35,016 nt of DNA, from the NCBI GenBank assembly GCA_965230955.1, contig OZ246404.1, forward strand, positions 648,410 to 683,425, in the 5' to 3' direction. Each line of letters starts with the position of its first letter. The first letter of the stretch is position 1. Shown piece after piece: positions 734 through 21,968 of this stretch. Position numbers and translations under genes: made by a program. Under the pieces are notes generated by a model. It saw only the letters and a list, made by a program, of their open reading frames with translations, ran no database searches and was not told the origin of the DNA. This DNA is from an uncultured Candidatus Saccharibacteria bacterium. GTDB lineage: Bacteria; Patescibacteriota; CALEFQ01.

Positions 734-1255
734 AGCTTTGAATTTTTGCCGGTACTGCCGCAGCACTTCATATAATACAATGCCGTATGCCGTCGCCACA
801 TTGAGCGATTCTTTCACGCCCAGCATCGGGATATGAACGACCGAGTCGCATTGCTTGAGAGTTTCCTTTGATACACCCAATATCTCATTGCCGAAAATCA
901 AACAAACAGGAAAATTAAACTTAAATTCAGTACAAGGCACGCTGGCGGCGGTCTGCTCCACCGCGACCATCTGCATATTCTTAACGTTCTTAATGCTCTT
1001 AATATCTTTTATCCCTTCCCACGGAACAAAGTCCTCTGCTCCCAGGGCGGTTTTAGATATTTCTTTCCGCGGCGGGCAAGCGGTGTAGCCCGCTAAATAC
1101 AATTTTGACACCAAACAAGCGTCAGAAGTGCGAAACGCCGAGCCAACATTGTACATACTGCGCACGTTTTCGAGGACAACATAAAAAGGATTCCGAGGTT
1201 TCCCTTTCATTTCCAGAGCGCGCTTTTTTTGCTTTTCGGTGACGTTTATTATCAT
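731..1255 (-). CDS. TrmH/SpoU family RNA 2'-O-methyltransferase
   Basis: VVLENVRSMYNVGSAFRT, LIFGNEILG and IPMLGVKESLNVA SPOUT motifs; ATG at 1255 preferred over the ORF-track start at 1279. Confidence 0.92.
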   Translation of the reverse strand: MIINVTEKQKKRALEMKGKPRNPFYVVLENVRSMYNVGSAFRTSDACLVSKLYLAGYTACPPRKEISKTALGAEDFVPWEGIKDIKSIKNVKNMQMVAVEQTAASVPCTEFKFNFPVCLIFGNEILGVSKETLKQCDSVVHIPMLGVKESLNVATAYGIVLYEVLRQYRQKFKA

Positions 1256-1269
1256 ATGTTTAAATAGCA

Positions 1270-1295
1270 GGGCGGGCACATGAGCCCGCCCCTAC
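1270..1295 (-). repeat. GTAG-type REP-like palindrome
   Basis: Minus strand GTAG-GGGCGGGC-TCATGT-GCCCGCCC. Confidence 0.75.
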
Positions 1296-1300
1296 ATTAT

Positions 1301-1335
1301 TTCTTACATCTTAATTCTTAAATCTTACATCTTAT
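1301..1335. repeat. Degenerate 7-mer tandem tract (NTCTTAN)x5
   Basis: ttcttac atcttaa ttcttaa atcttac atcttat; contains the stop codon of the CYTH gene. Confidence 0.85.
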
Positions 1336-1950: not shown

Positions 1951-2832
1951 TTAATAATTAATATCGGCGATATAAAATTTCACTTGGTCACCGGTTACCG
2001 CCCAGTTGCCGAATTCATCCTGCTGTCCCTGAATTTTCTGGTAAAGGATTTTTCGACCGTCAGCCGAGATGGCAAATGAACCAATGATAGAATCAGCACT
2101 GGTCAGTAATTGCGCCTGGCCTGACGAGCTTTCCATCTGGAAAACAAACAACGGCTGGGCGTCAAGAGTTTCTTTGGTAAAAAAGGAATACTTTCCGTCT
2201 GGCGTGTGTTGTTCCAAGGAAATTTCGTCTCCCCGGTTCAACTGTTCTTCCATTACTTCTTCCTGGCCGGCGCTGTCGCCCACCACTTCCGACGGTACGG
2301 TTTTTTCGTTAAATACTCCGGTTTTAAATAGATCGCTTTGGCTGACTTTCAAGATCACTTCATGAGAACCATAATCAGGTTCCCCGTAGTACTGATGCTG
2401 GGTAAAAATAATCGATTCTGGACTGGCTTCATCCCAATGCAGATTATACCCGCCGACGACCGCCTCGCGCTGTCCGCTAGCGACATTGACTATTTGAACT
2501 TGCGTGCTGGCCGCCGTCAAATTGCTCATCTGAATAGCGACATGTTGACCGTCCCGCGACCAAGTCACCGGACCGTCAAAACCAGAGGCAGCCATCCCCT
2601 CGCTCGACACCGGCAATTCCCGAATATTGGTCAGTTTGATCGAACCGGTCTCGCCCGTCCCGCCCAGACTCTCCGTTGTCACCTGATCACCCGGGGTGAT
2701 CACCGGATTCAACTGATCTCCCGCCGCCTCCCGCTTACCCCAAGTGCAACCGCCAATTAAAAAAGCTAAAACTAAAAAGAAAGCAGACAATATCAGCACT
2801 TTTGACTTTTGATCTTTGACTTTTGAATTCAT
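1951..2832 (-). CDS. Lipoprotein with TolB/PD40-like beta-propeller repeats
   Basis: Signal peptide with lipobox LIGGC; WSRDG..., ISADGRKILY repeats; ATG at 2832 overlaps the fpg stop (ATGA). Confidence 0.7.
   Translation of the reverse strand: MNSKVKDQKSKVLILSAFFLVLAFLIGGCTWGKREAAGDQLNPVITPGDQVTTESLGGTGETGSIKLTNIRELPVSSEGMAASGFDGPVTWSRDGQHVAIQMSNLTAASTQVQIVNVASGQREAVVGGYNLHWDEASPESIIFTQHQYYGEPDYGSHEVILKVSQSDLFKTGVFNEKTVPSEVVGDSAGQEEVMEEQLNRGDEISLEQHTPDGKYSFFTKETLDAQPLFVFQMESSSGQAQLLTSADSIIGSFAISADGRKILYQKIQGQQDEFGNWAVTGDQVKFYIADINY
2800..2827. repeat. 7-mer tract (TTTTGAN)x4, translated as the lipoprotein N-terminus
   Basis: ttttgac ttttgat ctttgac ttttgaa = SKVKDQKSK. Confidence 0.8.
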
Positions 2833-3653: not shown

Positions 3654-3661
3654 AGAGATAA

Positions 3662-3721
3662 GTCAAAAGTCAAAACTCAAAAGTCAAAAGTGTGATTATC
3701 GGGACTTTTTACTTTTGACTT
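3662..3721. repeat. Inverted 7-mer tract
   Basis: gtcaaaa gtcaaaa ctcaaaa gtcaaaa followed by the inverted arm actttttacttttgactt. Confidence 0.8.
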
Positions 3722-3741
3722 CCTGCCTGCCGGCAGGCAGG
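3722..3741. repeat. Perfect 20 bp palindrome CCTGCCTGCCGGCAGGCAGG
   Basis: Read directly from the sequence. Confidence 0.9.
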
Positions 3742-3751
3742 TTGACTTATT

Positions 3752-15998: not shown

Positions 15999-16193
15999 CT
16001 ATTCCTTCTCGGTTACGATTAATTTGGCCTCGCGTAATTTATTTTGCAAAAATTGATGCAACTTTTCCGCTTCTTTTACCAAAGCCATGCCCTCTTCCAC
16101 TTCCAGATCAGCGCTTTCCAGCTTGCGCGAAATCTCCTCCATTTTTCCGAAGGCTTCTTTGAATGACATCTCTTTTTTGTATTTCTTGGTCAT
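15999..16193 (-). CDS. xseB: Exodeoxyribonuclease VII small subunit
   Basis: SFKEAFGKMEEI...LES..LEVEEGMAL.KEA..L...L; downstream of xseA; ATG at 16193. Confidence 0.9.
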   Translation of the reverse strand: MTKKYKKEMSFKEAFGKMEEISRKLESADLEVEEGMALVKEAEKLHQFLQNKLREAKLIVTEKE

Positions 16194-16230: not shown

Positions 16231-16253
16231 GGACGAACGGCGTTCGCCCCTAC
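16231..16253 (-). repeat. GTAG-type REP-like palindrome
   Basis: Minus strand GTAG-GGGCGAAC-GCC-GTTCGTCC. Confidence 0.75.
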
Positions 16254-16257
16254 CGCT

Positions 16258-16331
16258 TTCTTACATCTTACATCTTAAATCTTATCTCTTATTTCTTAAC
16301 ATCTTAATACTCTTAATATCTTACTTCTTAC
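16258..16331. repeat. Degenerate 7-mer tandem tract (NTCTTAN), about 10 units
   Basis: ttcttac atcttac atcttaa atcttat ctcttat ttcttaa ...; contains the xseA stop codon. Confidence 0.85.
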
Positions 16332-17451
16332 TCTTCCCCTTCACCTCGGTGAATAATCCCCCTTCCGCCAATCTTATTTTCAGCAACTCACCAACTTTTA
16401 CTTGACCGGCTCGACTCACCACTCGATCTTTCCGATAAACGAGACTGTAACCGCGAGAAAGCACCGCCTCCGGACTCAGAGCGACAATTTTATGATAAAG
16501 CAGATCCTGCGACTGCGAGCACTCGCGGATAAAACGAGCAAATCCCGATTGTACCTGCTCCCAAACCTGCTTGATTTCTGCCGGCAGTTCTTTCCAGTGA
16601 TTTTTTACTTGAGTCAGCTTAAAAGCAAATTCATCCAATTGCCGCGCTAATTCATCGCGATGAGGGACGATTTCCTCCGCCGCATTAGATGGAGTGGACG
16701 ACCTGTGGTCAGCCACCAGATCGGCTATAGTCACGTCTTTCTCGTGACCGACGGCGGAAAGAACCGGAAGGGACGAGGCCACAATCGCCCGCGCCACGCG
16801 TTCGTCATTAAATCCCCAAAGATCTTCCAACGAACCGCCGCCCCTGGTCAGAACAATCAAGTCCACCTCATTTTCAGAATTGAATGCTTGCAGAGCCGCA
16901 ACAATTTGGCCGGGCGACTTGTCCCCTTGGACTAAAACATCCCGTAAAACAAGTTCCACGCCGCCGAAACGGTGAGACAATACTTTCTTGAAATCTTTCC
17001 AAGCCGCGCCGTCTTTGGAAGAAATGACGCCGATTCGTGCGGGAAAAGCCGGCAGCGGTTTTTTGCGCTCGTCAGCAAATAGCCCTTCGGCCTGTAATTT
17101 TTGCTTAAGCTTTTCTAGTTGCTGCTGGAGCGAACCTTGCCCGACGGTTTCTATCGTCTGTACTTTGAGCTGGTAATCGCCCCGCTTGGCATACAAGCTG
17201 ACCTGGCCAAAAACCACGATGGCCTGGCCGTCCGTCATCTCAACCGGCATTTTTTTTAGAACATCATCACGCACAATGCAGCGAATCTGGGCGGATTCAT
17301 CTTTGAGGGTAAAATAGTTATAAACCCAAGACCGTGACTGCTTAAACTCGGAAACTTCCCCGCTCACCCAGACCCAAAACTGCTCGAGCACCGCTCGCGC
17401 CTGGTCATTCAATTGAGATACCGTCAGAACTGACTTCTCGTCTTTGATCAT
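16321..17451 (-). CDS. xseA: Exodeoxyribonuclease VII large subunit (short C-terminal helical region)
   Basis: WVSGEVS, YFTLKD OB fold; GLF..ERK, RGGGSLEDLWGFN, SAVGHEKD.TIAD.VAD.R..TPS, LSRGYS. Confidence 0.96.
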   Translation of the reverse strand: MIKDEKSVLTVSQLNDQARAVLEQFWVWVSGEVSEFKQSRSWVYNYFTLKDESAQIRCIVRDDVLKKMPVEMTDGQAIVVFGQVSLYAKRGDYQLKVQTIETVGQGSLQQQLEKLKQKLQAEGLFADERKKPLPAFPARIGVISSKDGAAWKDFKKVLSHRFGGVELVLRDVLVQGDKSPGQIVAALQAFNSENEVDLIVLTRGGGSLEDLWGFNDERVARAIVASSLPVLSAVGHEKDVTIADLVADHRSSTPSNAAEEIVPHRDELARQLDEFAFKLTQVKNHWKELPAEIKQVWEQVQSGFARFIRECSQSQDLLYHKIVALSPEAVLSRGYSLVYRKDRVVSRAGQVKVGELLKIRLAEGGLFTEVKGKSKK

Positions 17452-17461
17452 TATCAAAGAG

Positions 17462-18077: not shown

Positions 18078-18117
18078 TAGTTGGTCTCTTGGGCTAAAGA
18101 CAAAAGACCAAAGACTT

Positions 18118-18144
18118 AAAAAACCTTGCTTCGCAAGGTTTTTT
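18118..18144. terminator. Intrinsic terminator (A6/T6-flanked) downstream of the ncRNA
   Basis: aaaaaa-ccttgc-ttc-gcaagg-tttttt. Confidence 0.85.
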
Positions 18145-18154
18145 AAGCCCGGAC

Positions 18155-18291
18155 AAGCCGGGCCCAGTCCCGCACTAAAGTGTTATACTTGATGCGGCGA
18201 AACTGTTCGTACAGCCGAAGCTGCATACCAGTTCTGCCTCTTTATCAAGCAGTCCCAGATTAGAGGAGACTCAAGCACCGATTGCCCAGGC
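18155..18291 (-). ncRNA. Structured non-coding RNA, 6S RNA-like candidate
   Basis: Rod-like fold by eye: apical cUUCGg hairpin UGCAGC/GCUGUA, AACUG/CAGUU, GGC/GCC, UGCUUGAU/AUCAAGUA, about 14 nt bubble on each side, AGUCUC/GGGACU, closing GCC(U)GGGC/GCCCGGC; own promoter and terminator; no ORF. Confidence 0.55.
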
Positions 18292-18297
18292 GTCAAT

Positions 18298-18326
18298 ATA
18301 GTATCAGTTTACTATGTTTTTGTCAA
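18298..18326 (-). promoter_or_regulatory. Near-consensus sigma70 promoter driving the ncRNA
   Basis: TTGACA-N17-TACTAT. Confidence 0.8.
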
Positions 18327-18327
18327 A

Positions 18328-18744
18328 TTAGGGATTGAGACTGCTCGGCATATCTAATTTATCTTTCATCTGCAAATCAGTCGTGGTGGCGTCAGCCGTG
18401 TGTTCCAATCCGTCGCTAGTTTTATACTTCAACTCATAATTACCGGTCAACAGATCCGCTTTATAATTATAATTCTCGCCGGCCATGGGACTTGAAGGTA
18501 CTTGATCCAGGTAAGCCGGGACCAAGGCGCTAAGTGAAGGAGGGAAAGTTCTTTCCTTTTGGGCATAAGAGAGCAAAGCGGAACGAATTTGCGAAATATC
18601 GCTATTGATCTGCTTGTCTTGGGCGAGATCTTCTTGGAGGTATTGCCCTGTCCCCGCTTGTTGCATATATCCCGGCGTCGTCCCGCAACCGGTAGCAACC
18701 AGCACCAAAGCAAAAAATAATACCGGAAAGAGAAGATTCAACAT
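18328..18744 (-). CDS. Lipoprotein with GspG/type IV pilin-like globular domain
   Basis: Lipobox VATGC; SDISQIRSALLSY...FP.SL..LVP.YL..VP..P...Y.Y pattern; ATG at 18744 preferred. Confidence 0.6.
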   Translation of the reverse strand: MLNLLFPVLFFALVLVATGCGTTPGYMQQAGTGQYLQEDLAQDKQINSDISQIRSALLSYAQKERTFPPSLSALVPAYLDQVPSSPMAGENYNYKADLLTGNYELKYKTSDGLEHTADATTTDLQMKDKLDMPSSLNP

Positions 18745-18751
18745 ATATTTA

Positions 18752-19891
18752 TCAAAACAATCGAATAACTTCATAAATGATAGCTAACACATAAACAAAC
18801 AAAACAATGCCCTGAATCCAGACCGGGAAGTTTATTTGAAATTCCGGTTTCCGCTGTCCGGTCACCCGAGCCCGGCGGTACATCAGAACATAAATAATGC
18901 CCGTCAAACCGCCGGTGATGCTACCGACAAAACTGATCGTGGCGACAAAACCGCTTACATCGAAAAAGAAAAAAACAATGGGGAAAATCAAAGTCAGTAA
19001 CAGAGCCAACCCGCGCTTCATTTTGTAATCAAACGTGTACATGTTGCGCAAAACGATTCCGGAAATGAAGAAAGAAGTACCGACCGCCACTAATCCGAAA
19101 ACCGCCAGCAACAAAGGAGACCACGGCGGCAAATACTGCTGGACCGTGCCGATAGAATCGGGAGTGGTCTGAGCGCCGCCCAGCCCGAGGATCGCGATAG
19201 TGAAGGCTAAGTTAATGGCCGTCGCGATCAAACCGCCCCACAAGATTGCCTTACTCAGCTTCTTCGCTTGCCCTTTGAGAATATTATTCAGCAAAGTGAT
19301 TGAGGCGGCGCCATTCAATGAAAATATAATGACTCCAAAAGGGAAAAGGATCTGGGTGAAATCAGACGTGGAGAAATTGACGGCCGCTATCCGCGGCACC
19401 GCCATGATGAAAATCACCGTCACTATCGCGATGAAAGCCGCCGTGAAAATCAGGTCAGCCTTTGAAACGATGCGCAGACCCATAATCACGAAGCAAGCGC
19501 AGATACCAAAAAAAATAACTCCCCAAACCAGCGGCGTCAGAGAAACATTTGCTCCAAAAGCACTGCGTAAAAAATCAGCTCCACCGATTATATAAATCAG
19601 CATTCCCCCGTAAATACCGGTCAAATTGGCTAAGAGCATCACTACTCGCCCGGGCTTGCCCAAATAAGTCCCGGCATAACCCGTCGCTTCATGATGGATC
19701 CCTAGCGTACGCAACATCACTTCCCCGTACATCAACATAATAACGATATTGACCATCGCCAACACCGCGAAAATAATTAGGGATGGCCAAAAACCAGCTT
19801 TCGCAAAAGCATAGGGCAATGCAAAAATACCAGCCCCAATAATGGTGCTGATAAGTGTTGCGACCGCAAAAATGAAGTTTTTGTTTTCCAT
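18752..19891 (-). CDS. Aromatic amino acid permease (Trp/Tyr, HAAAP family)
   Basis: TIIGAGIFALP, LMYGEV, GKPGR, PFGVIIFS, TSF; about 11 TM. Confidence 0.88.
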   Translation of the reverse strand: MENKNFIFAVATLISTIIGAGIFALPYAFAKAGFWPSLIIFAVLAMVNIVIMLMYGEVMLRTLGIHHEATGYAGTYLGKPGRVVMLLANLTGIYGGMLIYIIGGADFLRSAFGANVSLTPLVWGVIFFGICACFVIMGLRIVSKADLIFTAAFIAIVTVIFIMAVPRIAAVNFSTSDFTQILFPFGVIIFSLNGAASITLLNNILKGQAKKLSKAILWGGLIATAINLAFTIAILGLGGAQTTPDSIGTVQQYLPPWSPLLLAVFGLVAVGTSFFISGIVLRNMYTFDYKMKRGLALLLTLIFPIVFFFFDVSGFVATISFVGSITGGLTGIIYVLMYRRARVTGQRKPEFQINFPVWIQGIVLFVYVLAIIYEVIRLF

Positions 19892-21043
19892 TTACTTTCC
19901 ACTTTTCCGAAAAACTTGAAAGAGTTTTGCTAATTCCAAAGGAACTTCAGCCGTGGGCTTGGAAAAGGCGCAAGTTGCTAAAATACTCATCTTGGCCCGC
20001 AACATTTTCCCTGGATCGTTTTTAACCTGTCGATACAGTATTCGGATACTCTCGGGAGAATAACGCTCTAAGTGCAATTCCGAGAGAGGCAAACACTCAA
20101 ATAGATACTCAGAACCTTTGGCCTGCTCGATTTGGCCACGGCAGGCATCAATTAAAGATGTTTGTTTCATTATATTTAAAAAGCCAAAAAGACATCTTTC
20201 CTCCACCCCTCCTTCTTCAGCCAAACTTAGAACTTTTTTAGCAATACCTTGAATATCCAATTGCGGCTCCTTCTTCAGGTCATCAGCTGTCGTCTCCAAC
20301 CAATCTATCATTTCATCGACTTTGTGGCTGTCAACTCCGGGGCTGTTTTTTACAACATTAATCCATTTGTCTAATGGACGAGAAAAAAACGCTTCTTCTA
20401 CCAGCAAATATCTTTCCAGCTCACTGGGAATCGTCGCAAACTCCTGTAAAAGTTCTTTATTTCCCGTTAAAGACTTTTCTTTCATAATGCGGTAAATCTC
20501 TGCCAAAGGAGTATTAAGCTCAATACTAGGCAGCACCTTTCTAACATCCTGTATCATTTCTTGATGCGCCTGCCGGCTTCGTTCAAATAACTTATCGAAA
20601 TTAGTCCCGGTCCAGCTCTTTAGTTTTACTACGGGGACTCCATTTTCGAGGGCTTCAAAAGCAATACTGGCAGCCGTAACACCACAGAAGACTTCTCTGT
20701 ATTTTGAGTTCCACTGGATGTATTCCTGCTTTGTGAGATGCTCTTTTTGCCGATCAGGCAAATCATCATAGCCACTACTTTTTGACCATTCGCGTTCTAT
20801 TTCCAAAACTTGCCGAGCGAGTTCTGATTTTGAATCGTCAGACACCTGCCATTTATTCAGCTGGGAAATATGTTCAATTGCCTCGTGTAATTGCCTGGTT
20901 CTTTCAGATTCATAGATACCTACCGACTCCGCTTGGCGAATAATTTGCTTGGCATCGATGGGCACATATTCAAAAGATGGTTTTTCGCTGCTAACTGGTT
21001 CAATATATTCAGTTGGAGGTTCTAGTTCCTTTTTGTTTCTCAT
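19892..21043 (-). CDS. Hypothetical all-helical protein, no recognised family
   Basis: About 383 aa open frame, visibly AT-richer than the flanks; stop abuts the permease ATG (TAAATG); start 21043 or 21049 uncertain. Confidence 0.7.
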   Translation of the reverse strand: MRNKKELEPPTEYIEPVSSEKPSFEYVPIDAKQIIRQAESVGIYESERTRQLHEAIEHISQLNKWQVSDDSKSELARQVLEIEREWSKSSGYDDLPDRQKEHLTKQEYIQWNSKYREVFCGVTAASIAFEALENGVPVVKLKSWTGTNFDKLFERSRQAHQEMIQDVRKVLPSIELNTPLAEIYRIMKEKSLTGNKELLQEFATIPSELERYLLVEEAFFSRPLDKWINVVKNSPGVDSHKVDEMIDWLETTADDLKKEPQLDIQGIAKKVLSLAEEGGVEERCLFGFLNIMKQTSLIDACRGQIEQAKGSEYLFECLPLSELHLERYSPESIRILYRQVKNDPGKMLRAKMSILATCAFSKPTAEVPLELAKLFQVFRKSGK

Positions 21044-21166
21044 AAACACTGCTCTCTTTAGCGTATTTTAGAATAACAAATTTTTGATTGGCTCGTCGAT
21101 GAAATCAGGGCCAGCCTTCATCCAATTAGGATTGGATAGATGCCCAACCTTAGTTTGCCAAAGGCG

Positions 21167-21260
21167 TGGAACCGTTGGCTGGATTTGAACTTGCTTGCGC
21201 AAGCAAGCCGGCAACCACCTCCTTACCATGGAGGGACTTTACCCAAAGAGCTACATCGGC
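21167..21260 (-). pseudogene. Decayed tRNA-Thr(GGT) copy with an 18 bp palindrome inserted in the T arm
   Basis: Colinear with 21353-21428; anticodon arm identical; mismatches in acceptor, D and T stems; CTTGCTTGCGCAAGCAAG inserted between G53 and T54. Confidence 0.85.
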
Positions 21261-21352
21261 GCCCAGCGACTGGCGGGCAAGTCTGTCTACTGCCTGCTCT
21301 CCGTAGGCTGATATGGAGAAGGAGGGAGCTTATAACGCAAATTTTATTTATC

Positions 21353-21428
21353 TGGAGCCGTTGGCCGGATTTGAACCGGCGACCACCTCCTTACCATGGA
21401 GGTGCTCTACCAACTGAGCTACAACGGC
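21353..21428 (-). tRNA. tRNA-Thr(GGT)
   Basis: 76 nt cloverleaf GCCGTTG/CAACGGC, CCTCC-ATGGTAA-GGAGG, TTCAAAT, encoded CCA. Confidence 0.97.
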
Positions 21429-21453
21429 CCGCCTACGCCAAGGCTTCGGCGGG
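21428..21453. repeat. Hairpin element type A abutting the tRNA-Thr(GGT) 5' end
   Basis: cccgcctacgccaaggcttcggcggg; 24/26 identical to 21623-21648. Confidence 0.85.
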
Positions 21454-21507
21454 CAGGCCCGAAGGTTGACGCAAAACGATTAACTTCAAAATAACTCACG
21501 ACGCTTA

Positions 21508-21547
21508 CTGGCTTGCCAGACGAAGCTCGGCCAAGCCGAGCGTAGTC
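21508..21547. repeat. Hairpin element type B abutting the tRNA-Thr(CGT) 3' CCA
   Basis: 40 nt, 38/40 identical to 21737-21776. Confidence 0.9.
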
Positions 21548-21623
21548 TGGAGCCGAGGGCGGGATTTGAACCCGCGACCTGCGCGTTACGAATGCGCTGC
21601 TCTACCAACTGAGCTACCTCGGC
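21548..21623 (-). tRNA. tRNA-Thr(CGT)
   Basis: 76 nt cloverleaf GCCGAGG/CCTCGGC, loop TTCGTAA, TTCAAAT, encoded CCA; A31-C39 mismatch. Confidence 0.93.
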
Positions 21624-21648
21624 CCGCCTACGCTAAAGCTTCGGCGGG
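21623..21648. repeat. Hairpin element type A abutting the tRNA-Thr(CGT) 5' end
   Basis: cccgcctacgctaaagcttcggcggg. Confidence 0.85.
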
Positions 21649-21736
21649 TAAACTCGCGAAGCACTAGCGCAGAAAGACCAACTGCCCTTCGGCAAATCCA
21701 GCTTGGTGCTGAAATCCAGCCTGAGCTTGCTAACGT

Positions 21737-21776
21737 CTGGCCTGCCAGACGAAGCTCGGCGAAGCCGAGCGTAGTC
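21737..21776. repeat. Hairpin element type B abutting the tRNA-Gly 3' CCA
   Basis: ctggcctgccagacgaagctcggcgaagccgagcgtagtc. Confidence 0.9.
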
Positions 21777-21850
21777 TGGAGCGGGATACCAGAATCGAAC
21801 TGGCGTCTTCGCCTTGGGAAGGCGGTATACTACCACTGTACTAATCCCGC
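21777..21850 (-). tRNA. tRNA-Gly(CCC)
   Basis: 74 nt cloverleaf GCGGGAT/ATCCCGC, loop TTCCCAA, TTCGATT, U73, encoded CCA. Confidence 0.95.
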
Positions 21851-21896
21851 ATTCTCTAGTTCCTCGCCTAAAAACGAAGAAATCCAACCAGAACGT

Positions 21897-21962
21897 TTCT
21901 TGGTTCATTTGATCTCGGTTCCGTGAAATCCCGCTCAGAACCGAGATCTATTGAACTAAGAA
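21897..21962. repeat. Long hairpin between the prsA-like gene and the tRNA cluster
   Basis: gatctcggttc/gaaccgagatc perfect 11 bp plus outer 10/11 bp arms. Confidence 0.75.
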
Positions 21963-21968
21963 CCGGTT

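Follow-up and report, generated by a model that had tools for sequence, protein, structure and literature searches.

Two gene junctions 15 kb apart in the genome of an uncultured Candidatus Saccharibacteria bacterium carry the same succession of features on the minus strand: the end of a gene, a tandem array of the heptamer nTAAGAn, a GC-rich hairpin headed by GTAG, and the next gene. Both lie in a stretch of 35,016 nucleotides (nt) of contig OZ246404.1 (assembly GCA_965230955.1, positions 648,410 to 683,425), referred to here as the window. For this organism 46 kb (about 4%) of the roughly 1.14-Mb genome was read, including 7.8 kb past the right end of the window, in which no additional TAAGA tract and no GTAG hairpin was found. 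The metagenome runs that hold the window sequence come from wastewater. An earlier note on this DNA had described tract and hairpin as a single small non-autonomous element of the type moved by a transposase, tolerated at gene ends because it carries its own stop in every frame.

The first junction lies between a CYTH-domain gene (1332-1940, minus; Pfam PF01928) and, downstream, a SpoU-family RNA methyltransferase gene (731-1255, minus; Pfam PF00588), whose start at 1255 was picked by N-terminal conservation in an alignment with relatives. The CYTH gene ends in CAG CAG AAA TAA, and this stop codon (1334-1332) is at the same time the first TAA of tract 1 (1296-1334, minus). Read directly from 1334 to 1296, the tract runs TAAGATG TAAGATT TAAGAAT TAAGATG TAAGAAA TAAT, five units followed by TAAT, and Tandem Repeats Finder (TRF) reports it as 4.7 copies with a period of 7. 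The spacer between tract and hairpin is AATAAT. Hairpin 1 (1265-1295, minus) reads GTAGGGGCGGGC tcatgt GCCCGCCC TGCTA or, from 1295 to 1265 with its head split off, GTAG-GGGCGGGC-tcatgt-GCCCGCCC-TGCTA. Its stem of 10-11 bp folds at -24.3 kcal/mol (z = -3.3), and the ATG of SpoU at 1255 follows 9 nt past its end.

The second junction separates the two subunits of exonuclease VII: xseA, the large subunit (16321-17457, minus; assigned by Pfam), lies upstream and ends in ...VKGKSKK, and xseB, the small subunit (15999-16193, minus; Pfam PF02609), starts downstream with the ATG at 16193. The xseA gene closes with AAG AGT AAG AAG TAA, where the stop codon (16323-16321) is the second TAA of tract 2 (16254-16330, minus). 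This tract comprises about ten units (10.6 copies with a period of 7 by TRF). The proximal ones are 9-10 nt long (GATATTAAGA GTATTAAGAT). Regular 7-mers make up the final six, behind which the spacer AAGCG closes the tract. Hairpin 2 (16231-16253, minus) reads GTAGGGGCGAACG ccg TTCGTCC, or GTAG-GGGCGAACG-ccg-TTCGTCC from 16253 to 16231 with the head split off. Its stem of about 8 bp includes one G.U pair, which pairs on the sense strand only, and its fold is weaker (z = -1.6 over the whole 126 nt).

The arrangement described in the earlier note is therefore present as claimed, with order, orientation and a spacing of 5-6 nt alike at both gene ends. Both upstream genes do end in their tract, CYTH at the first TAA and xseA at a later one as ...KSKK. 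The arithmetic by which three consecutive 7-mers stop all frames is also correct: beyond the native stop of the upstream gene, frames 0, +1 and +2 contain 1, 2 and 2 stops in tract 1 and 2, 2 and 4 in tract 2.

The tract sequence itself is far from random. The sequence TAAGANNTAAGA occurs 10 times in the window, always within tracts 1 and 2, where 0.02 occurrences are expected. Strict period-7 arrays number three, against none in shuffled sequence, with none at periods 8-12; among periods of at least 7, period 7 alone exceeds shuffles in this organism. The exact 9-mer GTAGGGGCG at the hairpin head is likewise restricted to hairpins 1 and 2 in the window. With one mismatch allowed, it is found 6 times against 5.3 expected, so the 9-mer by itself is not above chance and the significance derives from hairpin and position.

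Further heptamer arrays surround the two loci. TRF finds about nine period-7 arrays in the window, with other units of the AAAAGTC/GACTTTT and GTCTTTn types. One, at 3658-3744 (minus), lies beside a hairpin in the intergenic region between a 124-aa open reading frame (ORF) and fpg: a perfect hairpin (CCTGCCTGCCGGCAGGCAGG) is followed by AAGTCAA-type units, an 11-nt spacer and an inverted (GACTTTT)x4, so the two heptamer arrays, being inverted, can pair as one long hairpin. Another, at 18094-18150 (minus), consists of a canonical terminator hairpin followed directly by a GTCTTTn array. Two assemblies of the source metagenome contain at least five more TAAGA tracts on other contigs at equal depth (about 13-15x). 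In the same assemblies (X1 and X2) no second near-identical copy of hairpin 1 was found, a search in which divergent copies, or 27-nt copies with variable loops, could escape the aligner. The tract type is multi-copy in this genome, whereas hairpin 1 was not met again in its exact sequence.

The layout of an array with its inverted copy also occurs in many TAAGA tracts of other phyla. One more period-7 array is translated: (TCAAAAG)x4 at 2798-2826 (minus) falls in the first codons of the ORF at 1951-2841 (MNSKVKDQKSKV...), which overlaps the fpg stop via ATGA, and it is read as a Lys/Ser-rich N-terminus.

Relatives in which synteny is conserved allow both junctions to be compared directly (percentages give protein identity to the window). 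Between xseA and xseB, L006 (61%) has a gap of 4 nt (...GKSKK TAA tatt ATG). L002 (78%) has a hairpin, gaTAGGGGCGAAgggaTTCGCCC, and no tract, while L005 (85%) has a period-8 AT-rich array (AATNATAA) and no hairpin. L195 (87%) carries four TAAGA units and then a GTAG hairpin whose loop is interrupted by 46 inserted nt, and L197 (85%) carries a 9-mer array, (ATATTAAGA)n, interrupted by the contig end. Between CYTH and SpoU, L201 (90%) has three 9-mers (ATATTAAGA) and then GGGGCGGACccatgtGTCCGCCC, with GTAG missing; L198, L199 and L200 (85-86%) have an AT-rich palindrome, about 110 nt long and unrelated; and in L202 (72%) a 4-nt gap is followed by a different gene. Tract and hairpin are separable. 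At xseA-xseB, moreover, the hairpin is the older of the two. Unit counts there are 0, 0, 4 and about 10, plus the 8- and 9-nt variants, and at CYTH-SpoU five 7-mers stand against three 9-mers. Tract turnover is thus rapid, with unit number and even period differing among close relatives, and these shifts fit a slippage-prone simple sequence repeat (SSR).

The ends of the upstream genes are also ancestral. XseA finishes in ...VKGKSKK in 13 of 14 relatives and in ...VKGKSRK in the remaining one, down to 58% identity, and CYTH is 202 aa long whether the tract is present or not. The native xseA end, AAG AGT AAG AAR TAA G, already holds two TAAGA proto-units seven bases apart. Given this ancestral end, the tract is best taken as an expansion of the last codons of xseA, not an insert that xseA runs into.

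These comparisons bear directly on the proposal that tract and GTAG hairpin form one non-autonomous element, moved by a REP-associated tyrosine transposase (RAYT; REP, repetitive extragenic palindrome) or an IS200-type enzyme, that inserts at the 3' ends of genes, where its all-frame stops make it tolerable. Variation among relatives, on which the proposal depended, is present at both loci; the shared order, orientation and spacing fit it, and close relatives do have both parts at both loci. Against it, the parts occur apart at the same junctions, with a hairpin alone in L002, an array alone in L005, 4-nt gaps in L006 and L202, and an unrelated palindrome in L198. The two window loci are unlike each other in stems, loops, spacers (AATAAT versus AAGCG) and tract lengths, tract length and period vary among loci and relatives, and neither terminal inverted repeats nor target duplications are found. 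Hairpin 1 lacks a second near-identical copy in the two assemblies. The idea of tolerance through a built-in stop fares no better: the gene ends are ancestral, and the 9-mer tract of L201, whose stops are confined to one frame, lacks all-frame stops. These findings largely contradict a composite mobile element that brings its own stop, and we regard it as very unlikely.

Three smaller features were seen at these junctions. The palindrome of about 110 nt (L198, 10610-10718; L199, 1514-1628), AAATAACCAATATCGAATAA ... TTATTCGATATTGGTTATTT, could be an insert resembling a miniature inverted-repeat transposable element. Within the SpoU gene of the window, at 979-1009 (minus), an in-frame 9-nt repeat, GATATTAAGAGCATTAAGAACGTTAAGAAT, encodes D-IKS-IKN-VKN and closely resembles the intergenic (ATATTAAGA) 9-mer arrays of a related organism. 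The SpoU gene of L199 has one extra coding unit (VKR) at that spot, so the copy number of the coding repeat varies too.

The hairpins show a different pattern of change. Their positions are conserved in orthologs over 78-90% protein identity, and the stems are kept through compensatory changes. In the ortholog of hairpin 1, window GGGC/GCCC corresponds to GGAC/GTCC in L201 (G>A and C>T), and in the ortholog of hairpin 2, window GCGAAC/GTTCGT corresponds to GCGGA/TCCGC in L195, a change on both sides of the stem. The GTAG head is found on both window hairpins, on three in L006 and on one in L195; it is missing from the orthologous hairpins in L002 (gATAG) and L201 (GAAG). Hairpin 1 shares a stem and loop family, GTAGGGGCGG[GC]CC[CA][GT]GTG...CCGCCCC, with the three L006 hairpins, two of which lie 2-5 nt past the stops of convergent genes and the third inside mutL. 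That third copy, at about 19265-19293 (minus), is a GTAGGGGCGGGCCCGTGTGCCCGCCCC hairpin antisense within the mutL coding region (18206-19996). On the same L006 contig, mutS is split into three ORFs of 225, 336 and 318 aa, a pattern suggestive of frameshifts or of gene decay.

By anatomy, both window hairpins would belong to the GTAG-tagged REP type (PMC3733652), as the earlier note had proposed. REPs of this type are GC-rich imperfect palindromes of 20-40 bp with GT[AG]G conserved at one end; a high copy number of one family and a gene for a RAYT (a Y1 HUH transposase), often with REPs on its flanks, also define them. Each window hairpin is a short GC-rich imperfect palindrome, extragenic and placed between co-directional genes. 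The 46 kb contain two GTAG hairpins with differing stems and no dimers (the REPIN form), and the genes annotated by Pfam in this region, in which no dedicated RAYT search was made, include none with a Y1_Tnp domain. An intrinsic terminator was considered and rejected: the tails, TGCTATTTAAAC and GGTGAAAATAC, lack a T-run, and a terminator scan calls neither hairpin while finding canonical sites at 10353-10332 and 18150-18112. Rfam gave nothing above threshold for the two loci; the L20 leader, CrcZ, RsmZ and GibS scored far below gathering and were taken as chance.

Surveys of other genomes show how often the two parts meet. In a scan of the Genome Taxonomy Database (GTDB) with one genome per species and four TAAGA units required, arrays occur at no fewer than 120 loci that span Bacteroidales, cyanobacteria, several Patescibacteria lineages, Chloroflexi, Acidobacteriota and others. 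Among the matches listed, 53 of 132 tracts (40%) lie at or just past the end of a sense ORF of at least 80 codons, as against 13 (10%) antisense, with ORF ends here and below based on open frames, not curated genes. A second scan, of metagenomes, sought composites consisting of three TAAGA units, 0-12 nt and then GTAGGGGCG. It returned 68 loci with the order gene stop, tract and GTAG hairpin; in 45 of 69, the tract contains or directly follows the end of a long sense ORF. Recurrence of this kind speaks for a mobile unit, yet the 68 matches have at least 40 different stems and so are not copies of one element. Viral contigs gave no match for the composite or for two orientation controls and are uninformative on orientation.

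Solo forms predominate elsewhere and far outnumber composites, which also counts against a mobile unit. GTAGGGG follows the tract in one of 132 GTDB tracts (L053) among the matches listed. In an unascertained control set, the 492 kb flanking the metagenome composite matches, a heptamer tract stands in front of 2 of the 80 other GTAG hairpins, and a GTAG head follows 2 of the 43 other heptamer tracts. Two repeats that are each concentrated in the first tens of nucleotides past genes would, if placed independently, give an adjacency close to this or a few-fold lower. The co-occurrence expected by the earlier note is accordingly mixed: the order recurs at 68 loci, but 131 of 132 tracts (among the matches listed) and 78 of 80 hairpins stand alone. 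Its view of the tract as a supplier of stops is borne out in part, a tract TAA being the gene stop in 29 of 132 GTDB tracts among the matches listed and in 31 of 69 metagenome composites, but the xseA stop is native. Strong GC hairpins within 60 nt of a TAAGA tract were found downstream in 10 of 126 cases and upstream in 5 of 126, among the GTDB matches listed, compared with 1.4% of random 60-mers. This enrichment is modest, about that expected from intergenic location alone.

Some rumen- or termite-type contigs (metagenome loci L130, L141, L189 and L194) hold GTAGGGGCG hairpins in head-to-tail arrays of 3-6 copies with 27-46 nt spacing, and heptamer arrays of several differing units flank these hairpin arrays on both sides.

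Taken together, the two loci are probably, if only just, juxtapositions of two known kinds of intergenic repeat: a stop-codon-seeded nTAAGAn repeat and an older, structurally maintained GTAG hairpin. The heptanucleotide repeat would grow in place by strand slippage from the stop context of the upstream gene (AAR TAA GAT). At xseA, the seed would be AAG AGT AAG AAR TAA with its two proto-units. Since every unit holds a sense TAA, the array is confined to the last codons of a gene or to the sequence beyond. An array at a gene end would be near-neutral, with units gained, lost and re-periodised quickly, and the hairpin stem would be maintained by selection. The hairpin itself is most likely a 3' stem-loop of the sense transcript, where it may act as a barrier to 3' exonucleases or as a partial cistron insulator, and not as a canonical terminator. 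A tract that begins at the stop codon and spreads into the short spacer before a pre-existing hairpin would produce the observed order by geometry.

Several observations weigh against this account. The 68 ordered metagenome loci compare with a rough random estimate well below one. The few unascertained adjacencies are all adjacent to the GTAG head (3 to 0) and all of the TAAGA type (2 of about 10, versus 0 of 33 for other units). Within the 46 kb, both TAAGA tracts and both GTAG hairpins fall in the same two of about 18 intergenic regions, a coincidence of about 1 in 150 under random placement for a case chosen post hoc. Related organisms B and C, close to that of the window, also have tract and hairpin, and the 9-mer motif GATATTAAGAnTATTAAGA appears at differing loci in two organisms. 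Tract lengths were identical in two samples of one study, so slippage within a population is not directly seen. Solo GTAG hairpins, finally, are 17 sense and 13 antisense relative to gene ends. Since they have no clear orientation, geometry alone does not account for the GTAG side being turned towards the tract, and the suggestion that GTAG hairpins always lie in sense orientation after genes, as the full geometric cause of the order, is unsupported by these counts.

A last difficulty is that the window has four heptamer arrays between genes (1296-1334, 16254-16330, 3658-3744 and 18094-18150), and each of them lies within about 10 nt of a GC-rich hairpin, on either side. Such proximity suggests a second explanation without any mobile unit, in which a stable hairpin on the single-stranded template makes the polymerase pause and thereby triggers slippage in the adjoining AT-rich sequence, so that heptamer arrays would form preferentially next to hairpins. 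Polymerase pausing at hairpins promotes slippage in vitro. About half of the intergenic regions are free of such hairpins and none of these has an array, and at xseA-xseB the hairpin is older than the tract. The modest GTDB enrichment and the arrays without hairpins in L005 and L034 argue the other way. Hairpin-promoted expansion is an unlikely origin of the loci, but it is the most economical account of the residual association between tract and hairpin. A stronger form of the idea holds that TAAGA arrays and GTAG REP hairpins are mechanistically coupled across many phyla, the array being made at the GTAG side by hairpin-stalled replication or by processing of single-stranded REP DNA, in a recurrent and possibly functional 3'-end architecture; this is decidedly doubtful.

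A functional RNA module offers another way to account for the persistence of both parts. Here, A-rich TAAGA repeats would bind an S1-, CsrA- or Hfq-like protein and the hairpin would serve as a 3' or insulating structure, together tuning the expression of xseB and SpoU. The position is suitable, since the next gene has both parts in its 5' region, with 9 nt between hairpin 1 and the ATG of SpoU; three related organisms have kept both parts at both loci although the units turn over, and a comparable proposal exists for TAACTGA repeats (PMC4679880). Slightly more distant relatives with the same genes, however, lack the tract, unit length and number are unconserved, and no Rfam family reaches threshold, which leaves this module highly improbable.

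The preferred reading, a stop-seeded repeat beside an older hairpin, places the tracts among well-known sequences. By the summary of Mrazek 2007 given in PMC4679880, heptamers are the commonest class of long SSRs (LSSRs) in prokaryotes and are attributed to polymerase slippage. Heptamer SSRs overlap stop codons or lie within 50 bp of them on the sense strand, and known examples include GGGAATC/GGGGAYT of Xanthomonas and Nostoc (PMC4692102) and TAACTGA of Beggiatoaceae, cyanobacteria and Bacteroidetes, for which forward-orientation stops have been argued to restrict arrays to the ends of coding sequences (PMC4679880). The present tracts resemble prokaryotic heptanucleotide LSSRs, including the short tandemly repeated repetitive sequences of cyanobacteria, in having many arrays per genome, variable copy number and forward stops that confine arrays to gene ends. 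They have at least three units beyond chance, their unit number varies in relatives, and several arrays sit at sense stops. Unlike known heptamer LSSRs, they use the unit nTAAGAn in a Patescibacteria-type host of about 1.1 Mb, switch to and from 8- and 9-nt periods among close relatives, and in two cases adjoin GTAG hairpins. No earlier description of the wide spread of TAAGA arrays was found in a limited literature search.

The hairpins have their own precedent. GTAG-tagged REPs lie mostly downstream of ORFs, often have G.T pairs and occasionally occur inside repair genes (Di Nocera et al. 2013, PMC3733652). The window hairpins match such REPs (PMC3733652; Nunvar et al. 2010, PMC2817692) and REPIN/RAYT systems in the 5' GTAG, a GC-rich stem of 8-11 bp, a short loop, an extragenic position just past ORFs, G.T pairs that suggest an RNA role, and one head with varied inner stems; the L006 copy inside mutL parallels the REPs reported in repair genes. 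They differ in occurring as two copies in 46 kb with differing stems and no REPIN dimers. Unlike recently mobile REPs, they keep orthologous positions with compensatory changes and so look more like a maintained structure. With intrinsic (Rho-independent) terminators they share a GC-rich stem-loop directly past a gene, but they have no T-run, and hairpin 2 lies within the xseA-xseB pair, which is contiguous in relatives.

These loci illustrate in detail that a tandem repeat which appears to provide a stop can be an outgrowth of a gene's own last codons, and that adjoining repeats need not make one element. They add, modestly, nTAAGAn arrays in many phyla, with a strong bias to start at sense-strand stop codons, and small Patescibacteria-type genomes whose GTAG hairpins hold their positions across considerable divergence while changing in a compensatory way. 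If the residual link to the GTAG side were true genome-wide, it would hint at a concrete generator of heptamer repeats.

Two further non-coding regions were seen in the same 46 kb. In the tRNA cluster at 21050-21968 (Thr-GGT, Thr-CGT and Gly-CCC), a hairpin, CCAGACTACGCTCGGCTT.GCCGAGCTTCGTCTGG, is repeated after each Thr tRNA. Near 21130-21240 lies a fourth tRNA-like sequence, called by neither ARAGORN nor Rfam, with an extra GC-rich stem in the T-arm region. Roughly 2.4-2.8 kb past the right end of the window (L203, 5080-5480), a long structured non-coding stretch between genes looks like an RNase P RNA.

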